64,000 nucleotides of DNA from a virus (taxonomy: Duplodnaviria; Caudoviricetes), in the IMG/VR virus record IMGVR_UViG_3300037471_000583, positions 396 through 64,395 of that record, one strand, 5' to 3'. The position numbers and the translations under genes are program-made. The first letter of the stretch is position 1; each line of letters opens with the position of its first letter. Of this stretch, positions 36,685-42,620 are shown piece by piece. Under the pieces are notes generated by a model. That model was not told where the DNA came from. It saw only the letters and a program-made list of their open reading frames with translations, and ran no database searches.

Positions 36685-37053
36685 ATGGCGACTGGGAAAA
36701 AGACCGGTGGCCGCGCGAAGGGCACCCCGAACAAGGCCACAGCGCGCCGTGAGAAGGAAATCGCCAAGTCAGGCGTCACACCGCTCGACTACATGTTGAA
36801 GGTCATGAGGGACAGCCGGGCGGACAAATCACGCCGGGATGACATGGCAAAAGCCGCCGCGCCATACGTGCACCCGAAGCTTGCCGCCCACCAGCATACC
36901 GGGGCCAAGGGTGGACCGATACAAACCATTGATCTTACGAACATGAGCCCTGATGACCTCGACCGACTCGAAGCTCTCTTCGGTCCGCTTGCCGGTGGAT
37001 CCGGCGACGATGATGAGGGCGATCCGGGCAGAGAAGGCGAGGCGCGCGGCTGA
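36685..37053 (+). CDS. terS: Terminase small subunit
   Basis: KTGGR.KGTPNK, TPLDYML, AKAAAPYVHPKL; directly before terL. Confidence 0.85.
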   Translation: MATGKKTGGRAKGTPNKATARREKEIAKSGVTPLDYMLKVMRDSRADKSRRDDMAKAAAPYVHPKLAAHQHTGAKGGPIQTIDLTNMSPDDLDRLEALFGPLAGGSGDDDEGDPGREGEARG

Positions 37054-38482
37054 GGCCGAAAGGCAGCGGGTTGCCAAAGATGCCGAGCGCATCAGGGCGC
37101 GGTGCCAGACGCTTGCCGGATTTGTCCGTGAAGCCTGGCACGTGCTGGAGCCGACGGCCAAGTACCGGCACAATTGGCATATCGATGCCATTTGCCAGCA
37201 TCTCGAGGCAGTAACGGACGGCAAGATCAACCGGCTGTTGATCAACGTCCCGCCTGGATCATCGAAGTCATTGCTGGTCTCGGTCATGTGGCAGGCATGG
37301 GAATGGGGACCGCGTGGAAAGCGGTCGACCCGGTACCTGACTACATCGTTCAACGATGGACCGGTCAAGCGCGACACCCGCAAATGCCGCGACCTGATGC
37401 TGTCGGAATGGTATCGGTCGCTGTGGCCCGAGGTGGTGCTGGACCGCACTGGTGAGACATCATTCTCTAACACGTCGACCGGAACTCGCGAGGGCGTGCC
37501 GTTTGGGTCGCTTACGTCACAACGCGGTGACAGGCTGGTAATCGACGATCCGCATTCGACCGAGACCGCAGAGAGTGCGGCCGATCGTCTGGCGACGACC
37601 CGCAAGTTTCGTGAGGGCGCGCAGAACCGCCTCAACGATCAGGAGGCGTCTGCCATCGTCGTCATCATGCAGCGTTTGCATGAGGAAGACGTTTCCGGCG
37701 TCATCGCCAAGGTCGGGATGGAATATGTCCATCTGATGCTGCCGATGGAATTCGAGCCGGAGCGGGCATGTGAGACCGAGATCGGTTTTCGCGACCCGCG
37801 TCAGGCAGAAGGCGAATTGCTGGACCCGATCCGGTTTCCCAGGGATACCGTCGAGAAACTTAAGCGCGACATGGGCACCTATGCCTATGCCGGGCAGTAT
37901 CAGCAGCGGCCGGCACCAAGAGCGGGCGGCATGTTCCAGCGCGGCGATTTCGAGATCGTCGATGCTGTGCCAGCCGGTGGTAAGCGCTGCCGGGCATGGG
38001 ACTTCGCTGCATCAAAAGAAAAGCCGGGCAAGCAGCCGGATTGGACCGTTGGGCTCCGGATGCTCTATGTGGGCGGCGTCTTTTATGTCGAGGCTGTGGA
38101 GCGTGGACGGTGGTCTCCAAGCGAGGTCGAGAAGACGCTGAAGAACACCGCAAGCCAGGATGGCACCGACATCGTCATCCGGATGCCGCAGGATCCAGGT
38201 GCGGCCGGCAAAGCAGATGCTGAAACGAAGATCAAATTGCTCGCCGGCTACAGCCTGAAGGTTGAGACGGTGAGCGGCGAGAAAACACTTCGCGCAACGC
38301 CTGCCGCAGCGCAGGCAGAAGCAGGAAACGTGAAATTGCTACGAGGTAGTTGGAATGATGCATTTCTGGATGAGGTCTGCACATTCCCGAATGGGCAGTT
38401 TGACGACCAGGTCGATGCTTTTGCCGACGCCCTCAACCAGCTCGCCTTGGGCTACACCTACGGAATGCTGAGCGTCGTCTGA
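36953..38482 (+). CDS. terL: Terminase large subunit
   Basis: LINVPPGSSKS Walker A, LVIDDPH Walker B, YAGQYQQRP, RAWDFAA, HDD-like FDDQVDA. The start could be at 37010. Confidence 0.93.
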   Translation: MTSTDSKLSSVRLPVDPATMMRAIRAEKARRAAEAERQRVAKDAERIRARCQTLAGFVREAWHVLEPTAKYRHNWHIDAICQHLEAVTDGKINRLLINVPPGSSKSLLVSVMWQAWEWGPRGKRSTRYLTTSFNDGPVKRDTRKCRDLMLSEWYRSLWPEVVLDRTGETSFSNTSTGTREGVPFGSLTSQRGDRLVIDDPHSTETAESAADRLATTRKFREGAQNRLNDQEASAIVVIMQRLHEEDVSGVIAKVGMEYVHLMLPMEFEPERACETEIGFRDPRQAEGELLDPIRFPRDTVEKLKRDMGTYAYAGQYQQRPAPRAGGMFQRGDFEIVDAVPAGGKRCRAWDFAASKEKPGKQPDWTVGLRMLYVGGVFYVEAVERGRWSPSEVEKTLKNTASQDGTDIVIRMPQDPGAAGKADAETKIKLLAGYSLKVETVSGEKTLRATPAAAQAEAGNVKLLRGSWNDAFLDEVCTFPNGQFDDQVDAFADALNQLALGYTYGMLSVV

Positions 38483-40419
38483 TGTGGCTGTTCGATCGCC
38501 TGCAGAATTTCGTCAGCGGCCTTGGTACCGCAAAAGACAAGACTATCGCGAACGCCTATGGCCTGAACCTGATCACGGCTGCCGAACTGAATGCCATGCA
38601 TCGGTCGGATTGGATGGCACGCAAGATCGTCGACATCATCCCCGACGACATGACACGGGAATGGCGGGAATGGAAAGCCGATGAGGCGGTCGTCAGCCAA
38701 ATCGAGGATGTCGAAAAGGATCCGTTGATCAGCCTGCAAGGCAAGGTCAATGAGGCGATGCAGATGGCTAGGCTCCGGGGCGGTGCAGCACTCTATATCG
38801 GCGTGGATGTTGGTCGTCCGGAAGAGGAACTTGTTCTCGACCGCGTCGTCAAAGGTTCGTTGAAATACATCCACGTGCTGAGCCGCGATGAGATCAGCTA
38901 TACAGAGATCAATCGCGACGTGATCTCACCTTACCGGGGCGAGCCGGTCTCCTATCAGGTCTCAGGCGATGGCAGGACGCTCAATATCCATCCGTCGCGG
39001 ATCGTGCGCTTCATCGGCGCGCCAATCCTTGACCGGTATGTGTCCGCGCTCGATTGCTGGGGGGATTCCATCCTGCAAGTGGTCTACGACGCCGTGCAGA
39101 ACGCGGCATCGTCGCAGCAGCATATCGCCGCCCTTATCCCCGAAACGAAGACGGACGTCATCTACATCCCTGGTCTGTCCAAGTTGTTGCAGAATGAGGA
39201 GACCACGAAGCAGCTGACATCCCGCTTCACCTATGCGAACACGATCAAGTCGATGTTCAATATGATCCTGCTCGAGGGCAACGGCGGTTCCGGCCCAAAC
39301 GCAGTCGGGGAGGCGTGGGAGCAGAAGCAGATCAACCTTTCCCAGTTCCCTGAACTGATGAGGCAGTTCCTGCAAGTCGCAGCCGGTGCCGCTGACATCC
39401 CGCTCACACGGTTCCTTGGCGACGCCCCATCAGGCCTTGGTTCGAACGGCGATCATTCGCTGACCAACTATTACGACAACATCTCAGCTCGCCAGCGCAA
39501 CAGCTTGACGCCAATGCTCAGGCGTCCCGACGAGATCATCATCCGATCGGCCACCGGCTCACGCGACCCGGACATCTGGTACGAATGGGCGCCACTCTAT
39601 TCGCAGACCGAAAAGGAGCGGGCAGAGGTTTTCAAGCTCTATGCAGATGGCGCGAGACAGCTTGTCGGTACGGCGTCGGGGCAAGAGATTATCCCCCGCG
39701 AAGCCGTGTCCGATGCTCTCGTCAACCGACTGATCGAGGACGGCAATCTGCCAGGACTCGAGGCCGCAATCGAGGAATACGGCAAGCTTTCCGAACAGGA
39801 ACCAAGCGAGGAAGAACAAGCAGCCGCGCTCGCCGCACAGCAGGTCGTGGAGACGGGTCAGCAGCAAATTCAGGGCAACCGCCAACAAGCGGCTGATGCC
39901 GCTCCACGGACACTCTATGTCTGCCGCAAGGTGCTAAACGCCGACGAGATCATTCGTTGGGCCAAGAGCCAAGGCTTCACGTCCACGCTGTCAGCGGCAG
40001 ACTTGCACACCACGATAACCTACAGCCGGACGCCGGTCGACTGGTTTGCTATGGGCTCGACGTGGGAAGACGAGGTCAAGATACCTCGGGGTGGTGCCCG
40101 CATGGTGGAAAAGCTTGGCGAGGCAACCGTGCTGCTGTTCGCATCGAACATGCTTACCTGGCGGCATCAGGAAATGGTCGAACTCGGAGCGTCGTGGGAT
40201 CATCCCGAATTCCAACCTCACATTTCGATCAGTTACGAGGGCGCGCCGGCCGATCTATCGAAGGTCGAACCCTACCAAGGTGAAATCCTGCTCGGCCCGG
40301 AGTTGTTCGAAGAGATCAAGGACGATTGGCAGGAGACCATTACGGAGGACGGAGGTGCGCCGATAGGCGGCGCCACCTTTCGAGGACGCAAAGCGAAAGC
40401 GCCACGGCGGCGGAAGTAG
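38482..40419 (+). CDS. DUF1073 portal protein fused to an Acb1-like 2H phosphodiesterase
   Basis: Portal motifs WMARKIVD, GDSILQ, AGAADIP.TR..G, NYYD. The C-terminal domain (~39904-40340) has LYV, LHTTITYSR and PHISISY. Confidence 0.9.
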   Translation: MWLFDRLQNFVSGLGTAKDKTIANAYGLNLITAAELNAMHRSDWMARKIVDIIPDDMTREWREWKADEAVVSQIEDVEKDPLISLQGKVNEAMQMARLRGGAALYIGVDVGRPEEELVLDRVVKGSLKYIHVLSRDEISYTEINRDVISPYRGEPVSYQVSGDGRTLNIHPSRIVRFIGAPILDRYVSALDCWGDSILQVVYDAVQNAASSQQHIAALIPETKTDVIYIPGLSKLLQNEETTKQLTSRFTYANTIKSMFNMILLEGNGGSGPNAVGEAWEQKQINLSQFPELMRQFLQVAAGAADIPLTRFLGDAPSGLGSNGDHSLTNYYDNISARQRNSLTPMLRRPDEIIIRSATGSRDPDIWYEWAPLYSQTEKERAEVFKLYADGARQLVGTASGQEIIPREAVSDALVNRLIEDGNLPGLEAAIEEYGKLSEQEPSEEEQAAALAAQQVVETGQQQIQGNRQQAADAAPRTLYVCRKVLNADEIIRWAKSQGFTSTLSAADLHTTITYSRTPVDWFAMGSTWEDEVKIPRGGARMVEKLGEATVLLFASNMLTWRHQEMVELGASWDHPEFQPHISISYEGAPADLSKVEPYQGEILLGPELFEEIKDDWQETITEDGGAPIGGATFRGRKAKAPRRRK

Positions 40420-40882
40420 CCTTGTCCGGTTCGACCCGAGCAAGCATCCTCGCGGAACGGGTGGGCGGTTCATATCGACGGGCGAGCACCTCCGGAATGC
40501 CGCGGGATTGGCCGGTCAGAACGCAGTAAGGCATGTCGAGTTCGCGGCGGTGCGTCGTCCAGCGGAATTGTCCAAATTGGTCGGCGAAGATGTGCGAGGC
40601 TTCAAGCACGCAGCAAGCAATCAGGCGATGCGGCACGCGTTGAGACAACACGGCGACGTGGCGGCAGAAAAATCGCGGGGTCAAAAAGCTCTGACCGAAG
40701 CGGATTTCCAGCGCCTTCCCGCGGTTGTGAAAAACGGCACCTATCATCCGGCTGAGCAACGACCATTCGGGCCGAGGCGGGTCGAGATTCACGCCTCGGT
40801 CGACGAAGACAGATACGTCTACGTCGGCGAGGTTCGGCGCGGTAAGCGCCGTATCGACATGATCACAATGTGGAAGAGGTAG
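40379..40882 (+). CDS. +1-frame extension of the portal: FDPSKHPR motif + PBECR-like ribonuclease domain
   Basis: Frame open from 40367 with no ATG/GTG/TTG before 40508. Reads FEDAKRKRHGGGSSLVRFDPSKHPRGTGGRF..RHALRQHG..EKSRGQKALTEADFQRLP..YVYVGEVRRG..MITMWKR. Confidence 0.7.
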   Translation, partial: FEDAKRKRHGGGSSLVRFDPSKHPRGTGGRFISTGEHLRNAAGLAGQNAVRHVEFAAVRRPAELSKLVGEDVRGFKHAASNQAMRHALRQHGDVAAEKSRGQKALTEADFQRLPAVVKNGTYHPAEQRPFGPRRVEIHASVDEDRYVYVGEVRRGKRRIDMITMWKR

Positions 40883-40943
40883 CCGCCCTGCCTCATGCCC
40901 TGCTTGCGCAGTCCTTGGGCCAACGTCCGAAACAACGGGCGGC
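40882..40943 (+). ncRNA. Compact hairpin directly after the nuclease stop codon
   Basis: GCCGCCC/GGGCGGC closing stem; inner CTGC-TTGC-GCAG and GCCC/GGGC; ACGTCCGAAAC segment; no U tract. Confidence 0.45.
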
Positions 40944-41015: not shown

Positions 41016-42620
41016 ATGGAAATCACCAATGCTGGCGTCGTCCTCACGACCAACAGCGCCGGCCAAACCGTTGAAGCCCAACCGGTCCTGAACCTCGATA
41101 GTCCGTACGTGCTGTCTGGGATCACCCGCAATGCAAAACGGATGCTGTGGGGTCAGGGTATCAGAGCGCCGCAGCAGGAAATCACGGTCTCAAACGGTGA
41201 GGAATATGAGGTTTCCAGGCATTGGTATCTGAGCCCGCCGTGGTGGACCCGCAATCCTCGTCTCGGCTTCGCCAACTGGTATTTGACCAATTCGACATCG
41301 GCACCCGAGGTCAGTGCCAGCAATTCGCAGTTATATCCGTCGGTCTCCTTTCAGGTCGGTCGTGATGGCACCCCGGCGCAGTTGAAGGTCGGAGGCCAAA
41401 GCTCTTTCACAATCGCCGCCGGTAATGGTGCTGTCACCGACACGCCGGCGAATATCATCATCCCGCCCAACACATGGTGTGCGGTCAGGATATGCCGCTA
41501 CAATGCTGCTGGCGCCAAGCGTGTGATCGACAGTTTTGCTAGGGCGCGCGGCGTCAGCATCGGCGATCGTAGCCAAGTGTCTGCCTCGGACATATCTGCC
41601 TCGGTCATGGATGGGACGGACAGTTCCGACTTCACCGCGAACTCGCAATGGGCACCGGGACCGGCGCTGATCGAGGCAGAGGGATGGGACGGTGTCACGC
41701 CGATCGGCCTGATCTTTGGGACCAGCATTGAATACGGTCAGGGCGAGGCGCCCCGCTATCGCGACAAGTATGGCGAAATGGGACCGGTCGGCCGCGGCTT
41801 TGCCAAGCCAGCCCACAATTCGCCGCGCATCCCGAATGTGAACTGGTCGATCCCGGGCGGCTACGCACAGGCCTTTGCCGCAAACGGCTCAACGCTGGCC
41901 AAGCGCAAGGCACTGATTGACGCCCTCGGTCTGAGTTATCTGCCATTCACCTTCATCTACTGCGGCGGCTGGACGAATGACAGCGCGGCGTTTGTGACCT
42001 GGATCACCTACATCGGCAATGTCCATACGGCACTGAAAACTCTGTGGCCGACGGCGAAACTGATCCAGGCAACGATGTGGCCGCGGACGCAATCGTCAGA
42101 CGGCTTCACGACGGTTGCCGGGCAATCGGCGCAAAGTGCATCGTGGACGCTGCTCACCGGTGACGCCTGGAATGTCCGATCATGGATGCTGAACATCCCG
42201 AACACCTTGCCGAACATGGATGTGTGCTTCGACGTGATGGACGCGGCCGACAAGGTGTTCGCCGGCGGTTCACGCGGCAAGTGGTGGCTTGATCTTTCCG
42301 ATCAGTGGTCATCAACACTGCAGGCCGCATGCAATTCAGGTTCGAAGAACATGGTGTCGGCGCTGCTGTTCAATGCCGTTGCCGGAGAGATCATCGGGTT
42401 TACCGGAGGCGCGCCCGAGGCCAATATCGTTGTGTCGACCAGCGGAACGGCATCACCTTTCAGCGCCACGCTCTACAACAACATGGCCACCACCCACAAC
42501 TCGGCTGAGACGATCAAGAAGGCCATCATTTCGGACGGCACGCATCCGAGTGTCGCGCTCAACGACCGTCTTGCCGACGACCTGTTTATCCCGGCTAAAC
42601 GGGCCGGCATTTTCAACTGA
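41016..42620 (+). CDS. SGNH/GDSL-like esterase domain protein
   Basis: IFGTSI (block I), SIPGG, GGWTND (block III), DGTHP (block V). Confidence 0.8.
   Translation: MEITNAGVVLTTNSAGQTVEAQPVLNLDSPYVLSGITRNAKRMLWGQGIRAPQQEITVSNGEEYEVSRHWYLSPPWWTRNPRLGFANWYLTNSTSAPEVSASNSQLYPSVSFQVGRDGTPAQLKVGGQSSFTIAAGNGAVTDTPANIIIPPNTWCAVRICRYNAAGAKRVIDSFARARGVSIGDRSQVSASDISASVMDGTDSSDFTANSQWAPGPALIEAEGWDGVTPIGLIFGTSIEYGQGEAPRYRDKYGEMGPVGRGFAKPAHNSPRIPNVNWSIPGGYAQAFAANGSTLAKRKALIDALGLSYLPFTFIYCGGWTNDSAAFVTWITYIGNVHTALKTLWPTAKLIQATMWPRTQSSDGFTTVAGQSAQSASWTLLTGDAWNVRSWMLNIPNTLPNMDVCFDVMDAADKVFAGGSRGKWWLDLSDQWSSTLQAACNSGSKNMVSALLFNAVAGEIIGFTGGAPEANIVVSTSGTASPFSATLYNNMATTHNSAETIKKAIISDGTHPSVALNDRLADDLFIPAKRAGIFN

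Follow-up and report, generated by a model that had tools for sequence, protein, structure and literature searches.

A candidate programmed +1 frameshift joining a phage portal protein to a PBECR3-type RNase domain

Results

We analysed a 64,000-nucleotide (nt) stretch of DNA from a tailed phage (Caudoviricetes), positions 396 to 64,395 of the rhizosphere metagenome virus record IMGVR_UViG_3300037471_000583 and referred to here as the window, in which a portal gene is overlapped by a second, out-of-frame coding sequence for a predicted RNase domain. The portal open reading frame (ORF), whose frame we call the zero frame, runs from 38482 to 40419 (plus strand, as does every feature of the junction and the RNase cassette given below) and encodes 645 amino acids (aa), made up of a portal (PF06381; phrog_146 portal), an Acb1-type 2H phosphodiesterase (PF23474) and a 12-residue basic tail. 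The Phage_portal_3 domain (PF06381) covers residues 35–391 (nt 38584–39654, E 2.8e-98), and the Acb1 domain covers residues 476–618 (nt 39907–40335, E 5.4e-44), the latter match spanning profile positions 1–143 of 144 with both H-x-T/S motifs present in the translation. An Acb1-type phosphodiesterase, directed against the cyclic oligonucleotide-based antiphage signalling system (anti-CBASS), is also fused to the portal in the relatives L002, L003, L028, L029, L032, L033 and P0008.

Towards the end of the portal gene the zero frame reads ACC TTT CGA (40375–40383). Beyond the TTT, which encodes Phe633, it continues with CGA, 11 further codons and TAG (40381–40419, the stop codon being 40417–40419), and it is with this tail that the unshifted portal of 645 aa ends. 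A TAG at 40364–40366 immediately precedes the +1 frame, which then stays open from 40367 to a stop codon at 40880–40882 and has a TTG at 40508 as its first ATG, GTG or TTG. At the proposed shift site, T_TTC (40378–40381), the zero-frame TTT overlaps a +1-frame TTC that likewise encodes Phe. From there a +1-frame extension of 167 codons and a stop (40379–40882) leads through a basic linker containing an HPR motif (F-D-P-S-K-H-P-R-G..G-R-F, 40430–40471) into a PBECR3 RNase domain (PF18812, 40556–40876, 41.4 bits). A GC-rich hairpin, seen both in the fold of the window and in a consensus structure across loci, occupies 40350–40382. The original prediction, which had been made from the letters of this DNA alone, had described the same two-frame anatomy, all of which is present, and the lengths that it gave for the two products, 799 aa and 645 aa, agree with our recalculation.

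A search for longer proteins revealed that the PBECR3 cassette is the in-frame C-terminus of the portal protein in some relatives. P0003 (795 aa), P0005 (768 aa) and P0008 (1086 aa) carry portal, Acb1 and PBECR3 in one frame, while P0004, P0006 and P0007 have the in-frame fusion without Acb1, the portal of P0007 belonging to another family (PF04860). At the level of DNA, the in-frame relatives (L002, L003, L004, L010, L011/L021, L024 and L026) are uninterrupted across a conserved G-G-x-P...P-F junction. The existence of these in-frame fusions indicates that the RNase domain is produced attached to the C-terminus of the portal.

The cassette lies in the +1 frame at 16 loci, which are the window itself, six viral contigs (L001, L012–L016), seven assemblies of public runs (L005–L008, L029, L032, L033), an Ancylobacter chromosome (L023) and the cultured isolate Rhizobium sp. 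Leaf321 (L028). Among these loci the toxins are 33–89% identical (median 49%) and the portals 21–87% (median 47%), and Acb1 is present in five and absent from the rest. At the homologous Phe, all 16 have TTT in the zero frame with a C directly after it, the tetranucleotide T_TTC being invariant while adjacent synonymous positions vary. Both readings of the site are conserved throughout: the portal frame gives [G/D/E]-A-[T/C/S]-F with Phe encoded by TTT, and the toxin frame gives x-F-x-D-A with Phe encoded by the overlapping TTC. The zero-frame tail after the site is unconserved and ranges from 1 to 19 codons. Because 15 other loci share the +1 offset at the same tetranucleotide, the two-frame arrangement is beyond chance. 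The distance from a conserved upstream GGAGGT to the Pro-Phe codons is 19 nt in the +1 types versus 18 nt in the in-frame types, and a shift at T_TTC would therefore restore the homologous protein register. Alignment of the homologues bears out part of the proposed TTT-CGN signature, TTT followed by C being common to all 16 of the +1 loci and CGN to 15 of them, with CAC at the remaining one. It also shows that the relatives are not uniformly fused in frame: some are, and many are not.

The window comes from a metagenome-derived record and was compared at the level of contigs only, which is the setting in which an assembly or sequencing indel might mimic such an offset. We give this explanation a negligible probability, since a second assembly (Logan, contigs) of run X1, probably the source sample, reproduces the identical sequence with no indel at a depth of 10.7, and since fifteen independent assemblies, one of them an isolate genome, have the offset in the identical place.

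Coding constraint passes from the zero frame to the +1 frame at T_TTC. Upstream of the TTT, it is the third positions of the zero frame that vary most (entropy 0.55, 0.78 and 0.93 at codon positions 1, 2 and 3), and downstream it is the third positions of the +1 frame (0.47, 1.12 and 1.34). In the zero frame, the upstream changes leave the amino acid as it is (Ala GCC/GCG, Pro CCG/CCA/CCT, Gly GGC/GGT, Thr ACC/ACG), and the same changes read in the +1 frame are radical (Pro-to-Arg or Arg-to-Gln/Leu). Directly at the boundary, the +1-frame codon preceding TTC is CCT, GCT or CGT, with its first two bases and its amino acid varying and its third-position T fixed. A fixed third position is the opposite of what coding in the +1 frame only would predict, and this T is sensible only as the first base of a translated zero-frame TTT.

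Between the window and L001, the proportions of non-synonymous (pN) and synonymous (pS) differences in the +1 frame are 0.22 and 0.74, respectively; for the 44 codons ahead of the first possible start they are 0.33 and 0.70. Judged from these sequence comparisons, the segment upstream of any possible start is under purifying selection. The claim that the out-of-frame HPR linker can be reached by a frameshift only is upheld by this selection and by the absence of a start before 40508. Likewise, the central proposal of the original prediction, a +1 shift from TTT to TTC that joins the portal to the RNase, gains support from the in-frame relatives, the 16 loci with T_TTC and the switch of constraint.

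These comparisons also bear on a different history, in which an old frameshift mutation, inherited or recombined, has inactivated the fusion and the downstream frame is decaying. In-frame relatives do exist, the formal difference from them is a one-base insertion, the loci are related, and there is clear movement of the cassette between portals. However, the +1 frame has remained open for 150–170 codons in 16 loci with synonymous sites near saturation, the catalytic-type residues are invariant, and the out-of-frame loci share both direction and position in all but one case. We therefore consider a decaying remnant very improbable.

We also weighed whether the RNase could be a separate protein that is initiated in the +1 frame, for example at the GTG of GGAGGTG or at a non-canonical codon, and is never fused to the portal. 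Of the first 15 loci tabulated, 11 have a GTG within GGAGGTG, eight +1-frame codons 5′ of the TTC, that is a conceivable independent start; gene callers placed such starts in P0014, P0015 and P0161, and short stand-alone PBECR3 proteins occur in databases. Yet this GTG abuts the Shine-Dalgarno (SD)-like bases with zero spacer, and no SD-like motif is conserved at a normal spacing. In the window, L014 and L029 it is cut off from the TTC by a +1-frame stop that stands four codons before the TTC, and it is absent in L015 and L006; in the window and L015 there is no ATG, GTG or TTG at all between the upstream +1-frame stop and the TTC. For these reasons GTG initiation cannot be the general mechanism. 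Moreover, the eight codons between the GTG and the TTC evolve as zero-frame coding sequence, and independent initiation would leave the invariant third-position T before the TTC unexplained. It would also make the window copy either dead or N-terminally truncated, with its start at TTG 40508, whereas the HPR linker 5′ of this TTG is intact and conserved in the window. Taken together, these results make a separately initiated RNase unlikely. Termination-reinitiation at the TGA of loci reading TTT CGC TGA was considered and rejected, as there is no nearby start codon in the toxin frame.

The 5′ arm of the hairpin at the end of the portal gene consists of the SD-like GAGGT(G), and its 3′ arm reaches through the ACC codon to the second T of TTT, a geometry in which the hairpin can pair with the codon in the exit (E) site and part of the codon in the peptidyl (P) site. 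In the window it folds with −18.9 kcal/mol (z −3.5). In the consensus over 14 loci, 94% of cells are paired, versus 31–55% when the partner is slid. There are compensatory changes at two inner pairs, and the inner stems of L015, L006 and L032 differ but still pair. The rare codons NGA-GGT within the hairpin are retained even where the amino acid goes from Gly to Arg. On 70S ribosomes in vitro, hairpins beside the E site stimulate +1 shifting, pairing with the E-site codon enhances the effect, and the published stimulation required an aminoacyl (A) site left empty by the lack of RF2 (PMC6321510). Searches of Rfam at the shift site and after the toxin gave no match. Two other roles for this region were rejected. 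The SD-like GGAGGT does not suit a stimulator of the prfB type, being 21 nt from the TTT versus 3 nt in prfB, and translational bypassing across the hairpin is at odds with the codons inside it, which evolve as zero-frame coding sequence.

The position of the hairpin is also what would be expected if RNA polymerase, rather than the ribosome, slipped: a nascent GC-rich hairpin beside a pyrimidine tract could lead the polymerase to skip one base, after which ordinary translation would give the same fusion, and the predicted protein would be identical. A GC-rich stem-loop does lie immediately 5′ of CC-TTT-C and overlaps it. According to a review of recoding (PMC5009743), the Roseiflexus IS630 transposase needs such a stem-loop 5′ adjacent to T5C5 and yields transcripts minus one C. 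The same review, however, has this case depend on a repetitive RNA-DNA hybrid of 9–10 nt (U5C4), T5C5 alone not slipping. The 5′ adjacent stem-loop is thus shared with our loci and the T5C5-type repetitive motif is absent from them: the tract is only T3, with different flanking bases, and the sequence after TTT is non-repetitive in every locus. Given a tract of only T3, transcriptional slippage is the less likely route, and we regard it as quite improbable.

Two further arrangements at the same junction deserve mention. Among the out-of-frame loci, only L022, a Caulobacteraceae metagenome-assembled genome, has the opposite (−1) offset: its portal ends CCT TTC TGA (about 2170–2215), with the toxin in the −1 frame. 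L022 retains the 18-nt spacing of the in-frame types and has a run of five G 12 nt upstream. Its offset is either a genuine −1 version of the same junction or an indel in an assembly that we guess, from the contig name, to be based on long reads. The in-frame relatives, for their part, read C_CCT_TTY at the homologous Pro-Phe in seven of seven cases (2391–2400 in L002, 4839–4848 in L003 and 3302–3311 in L004; also in L010, L011/L021, L024 and L026), which has the form of a −1 slippery heptamer built around a rare Pro codon. The codon before it ends in C whether it encodes Arg or Leu, and a −1-frame stop follows 0–2 codons downstream in six of the seven. This could reflect chance, a recombination hotspot or a route to a toxin-free portal.

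The identity of the cargo is supported by both profile and structure comparisons. As had been proposed, the +1 product is PBECR3-like: it matches Pfam PBECR3 (PF18812) with 41.4 bits, against a curated cut-off of 30 (E 1.6e-10), over residues 64–170 of the 171-aa translation and profile positions 7–107 of 115, and the relatives carry precomputed PF18812 matches. An AlphaFold model of the extension has a predicted local distance difference test (pLDDT) score of 82.7, exceeding 90 over residues 52–167. Among the first 16 matches of a wide structural search, 12 were RNase toxins of the BECR fold, part of them listed as such by Iyer et al. (2017). The Z scores were middling (BrnT 7.6, a Salmonella toxin (7vd7) 7.2, CdiA-CT 6.2 and 5.9, RelE 5.3, colicin D 4.9). 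Foldseek against the Protein Data Bank (PDB) with the extension model gave no significant match. Invariant His, Arg, Glu and Gln columns, candidate catalytic positions, are seen across nine relatives. On the strength of the model, a BECR-type RNase fold is supported for the extension, and RNase activity is predicted.

The linker motif (F/Y)(D/N)P..HPRG..GR(F/W) recurs immediately ahead of the cargo domains in polyvalent proteins of the portal and MuF types from unrelated phages. We found it in the window (40430–40471), P0008, P0022, P0030, P0032 and P0067, as a candidate signal for processing or targeting.

The toxin stop is followed immediately by a conserved structured RNA (40883–40942). Ten loci, some of the +1 type and some of the in-frame type, carry it behind the cassette, with which it thus travels; its closing stem shows compensatory changes at six of six pairs across the 10 loci, and no Rfam family matches it. 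It may act as a regulator or an antidote, or may signal processing or termination. No ORF separates the toxin stop from the gene that follows at 41016, and no immunity ORF is present. The label ‘polymorphic toxin’, applied in the original prediction, is therefore not supported in its strict sense.

The gene upstream of the portal ORF encodes the large terminase (36953–38482). Downstream, a 534-aa gene (41016–42620; phrog_8480, lysophospholipase L1-like esterase), for which no Pfam match was found, stands between the toxin cassette and a DUF2213 head gene. Eight relatives had called genes listed beyond the cassette. In each of them DUF2213 is the downstream head gene, directly after the cassette in five and after 1–3 other genes in L028, L007 and L032, and the phrog_8480 esterase gene is found at that place in none of the eight. 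A phage collection search returned distant portal matches only, and among 401 genomes of the searched order the centre genome was the sole match.

Discussion

We think it probable, on sequence grounds, that this portal gene contains a programmed +1 ribosomal frameshift in which tRNA-Phe passes from UUU to UUC, yielding a minor 799-aa portal-Acb1-RNase protein beside the 645-aa portal. Most ribosomes would read ACC UUU CGA and stop 12 codons later, producing the 645-aa portal-Acb1 protein. In a fraction of them, the peptidyl-tRNA-Phe (anticodon GAA) would slip from UUU, held by a G.U wobble, to the overlapping UUC, where a G-C pair forms, and these ribosomes would proceed in the +1 frame to make the 799-aa portal-Acb1-linker-RNase protein. 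The upstream hairpin could refold behind the ribosome, pair with the E-site codon and in this way stimulate the slip. We infer the ribosomal nature of the slip and its efficiency, and likewise the restriction of the RNase to a minority of subunits, incorporation into the virion, release from the portal, delivery to the cell and RNase activity. The C-terminus of portal proteins faces the capsid interior, and the RNase would therefore sit beside the packaged DNA. With 12 subunits to a portal, a shift rate as low as a few percent would still give about one RNase per capsid, similar to the dose of SPP1 gp7.

Several observations weigh against this explanation. The first group concerns the shift site. 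The codon after TTT is CGA at seven loci, CGC at five, CGT at two, CGG at one and CAC at one, so the loci share no slow A-site codon, and this genome uses CGC and CGG frequently; CGA makes up 10% of Arg codons in the window. In-frame TTT CGN occurs eight times in the ORFs of the window versus 7.2 expected and is thus not avoided, which means that the motif alone is not strongly shift-prone. As a general cause, a slow CGA that triggers the shift has accordingly to be given up, with all four CGN codons and one CAC occurring at the site. The 90 nt that follow the site yielded no conserved 3′ structure. The second group concerns the hairpin, which compared with synonymously recoded versions has a mean z of −0.95, is significant at four of 16 loci and shows no excess at three. 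The in-frame relatives have a comparable hairpin, and it may for that reason serve another purpose. Thirdly, the loci are related and their counts are not fully independent, and the toxin tree is too poorly resolved to count switches between in-frame and +1 types. The GTG within GGAGGTG, discussed above as a conceivable start, belongs here too. Since recoded versions fold almost as well and in-frame relatives have the hairpin, we infer its role and grade the support as moderate: it may stimulate the slip.

Portal-PBECR and portal-2H fusions have been described as ‘polyvalent proteins’ encoded in the head-packaging module, and packaging has been proposed for them (Iyer, Burroughs, Anand, de Souza and Aravind 2017, PMC5512222). 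Our loci have the same domain content, and the in-frame relatives are plain members of that class. What sets the +1 loci apart is that the RNase is reached by recoding only and would therefore be a minor product. The word ‘frameshift’ has no occurrence in PMC5512222. Similarly, the word ‘portal’ does not occur in the first 300,000 of the 429,602 characters of the recoding review (PMC5009743), and no frameshifted portal genes were described in the literature searched. Thus, the portal-PBECR fusion has been known since 2017, and recoding at its junction was not found described in the literature that we searched.

The shift site itself resembles the UUU_CGN of influenza A PA-X and the amalgaviruses (PMC5052127), which has the same UUU-to-UUC tRNA-Phe core with CGN next. 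TTT CGN is present at 15 of our 16 loci, most with ACC or NCC before it. The earlier cases are eukaryotic viruses in which the rarity of CGN is thought to be the trigger, whereas our loci have a 5′ hairpin and use all four CGN codons and, once, CAC; among the CGN codons, CGC and CGG are in common use here. Work of Firth et al. in 2012 reportedly treats the +1 motif of this influenza/amalgavirus type. In the literature found, the UUU_CGN shift motif is confined to eukaryotes or their viruses, with no case in bacteria or phages.

Minor structural proteins made by frameshifting are familiar from the T7 capsid (10A/10B) and lambda gpG/gpGT, which use −1 shifts, and from the capsid and tail of Listeria phage PSA, which use +1 shifts. 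As in those systems, recoding would here set the ratio between a short, major form and a minor one with a C-terminal extension. The differences are that the gene is that of the portal, that the site is T_TTC rather than CCC_UGA or a −1 heptamer, and that the cargo is an enzyme or toxin rather than a decoration or chaperone. Frameshift-made minor structural proteins are known for capsid and tail, and none for portals or for attaching an enzyme cargo appeared in the literature searched.

With regard to mechanism, E. coli prfB (encoding RF2) and the engineered hairpins of Huang, Cho and Chang (2018, PMC6321510) show a +1 slip like that proposed here, in which the P-site tRNA moves to a cognate codon overlapping the first. 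On 70S ribosomes the +1 shift is stimulated by a duplex that abuts or invades the E site, and the hairpin at our loci has that geometry. In prfB, an SD-antiSD duplex 3 nt upstream acts together with a slow UGA in the A site, while here the SD-like bases are 21 nt upstream, in a hairpin arm, and there is no conserved slow codon. With regard to cargo, the MuF toxins of temperate phages (Jamet et al. 2017, PMC5576092) likewise place a toxin domain on a head-internal carrier, encoded next to the portal gene, and the portal-bound head protein SPP1 gp7 is present in 1–2 copies per capsid (PMC5576092). In our loci the portal itself would be the carrier, and a structured RNA, not an immunity gene, follows; a profile search found no MuF domain in the portal or the extension.

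More tentatively, the junction may be a dedicated recoding node, a proposal that we regard as possible though doubtful. CC-TTT-C and an E-site-invading hairpin would together set the number of effector-bearing subunits among the 12, in the +1 direction at 16 loci and possibly in the −1 direction in L022 and the in-frame relatives, and so dose the RNase, in its Acb1 context, at roughly one copy per virion. To our knowledge, stimulation of +1 shifting by an upstream hairpin is known from engineered constructs only. If such a node were real, it would be, as far as we know, the first natural bacterial +1 frameshift stimulated by a 5′ hairpin and the first recoded portal gene.

Gene callers annotate loci of this kind as a short portal and a truncated ‘hypothetical protein’, and because they split these loci, portal-borne effectors, including those that stand beside anti-CBASS domains, are under-counted. 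Since one carrier, Rhizobium sp. Leaf321 (L028, in which the site likewise reads ACC TTT CGA), is cultured, the prediction is directly testable. If confirmed, it would extend the UUU-to-UUC +1 slip, which the literature found describes for influenza and plant amalgaviruses, to bacterial ribosomes and provide a natural test case for the stimulation of +1 shifting by an upstream hairpin. For the phage, it would mean that a potentially self-harmful RNase is dosed through the coding sequence itself, at a few copies per capsid rather than twelve.

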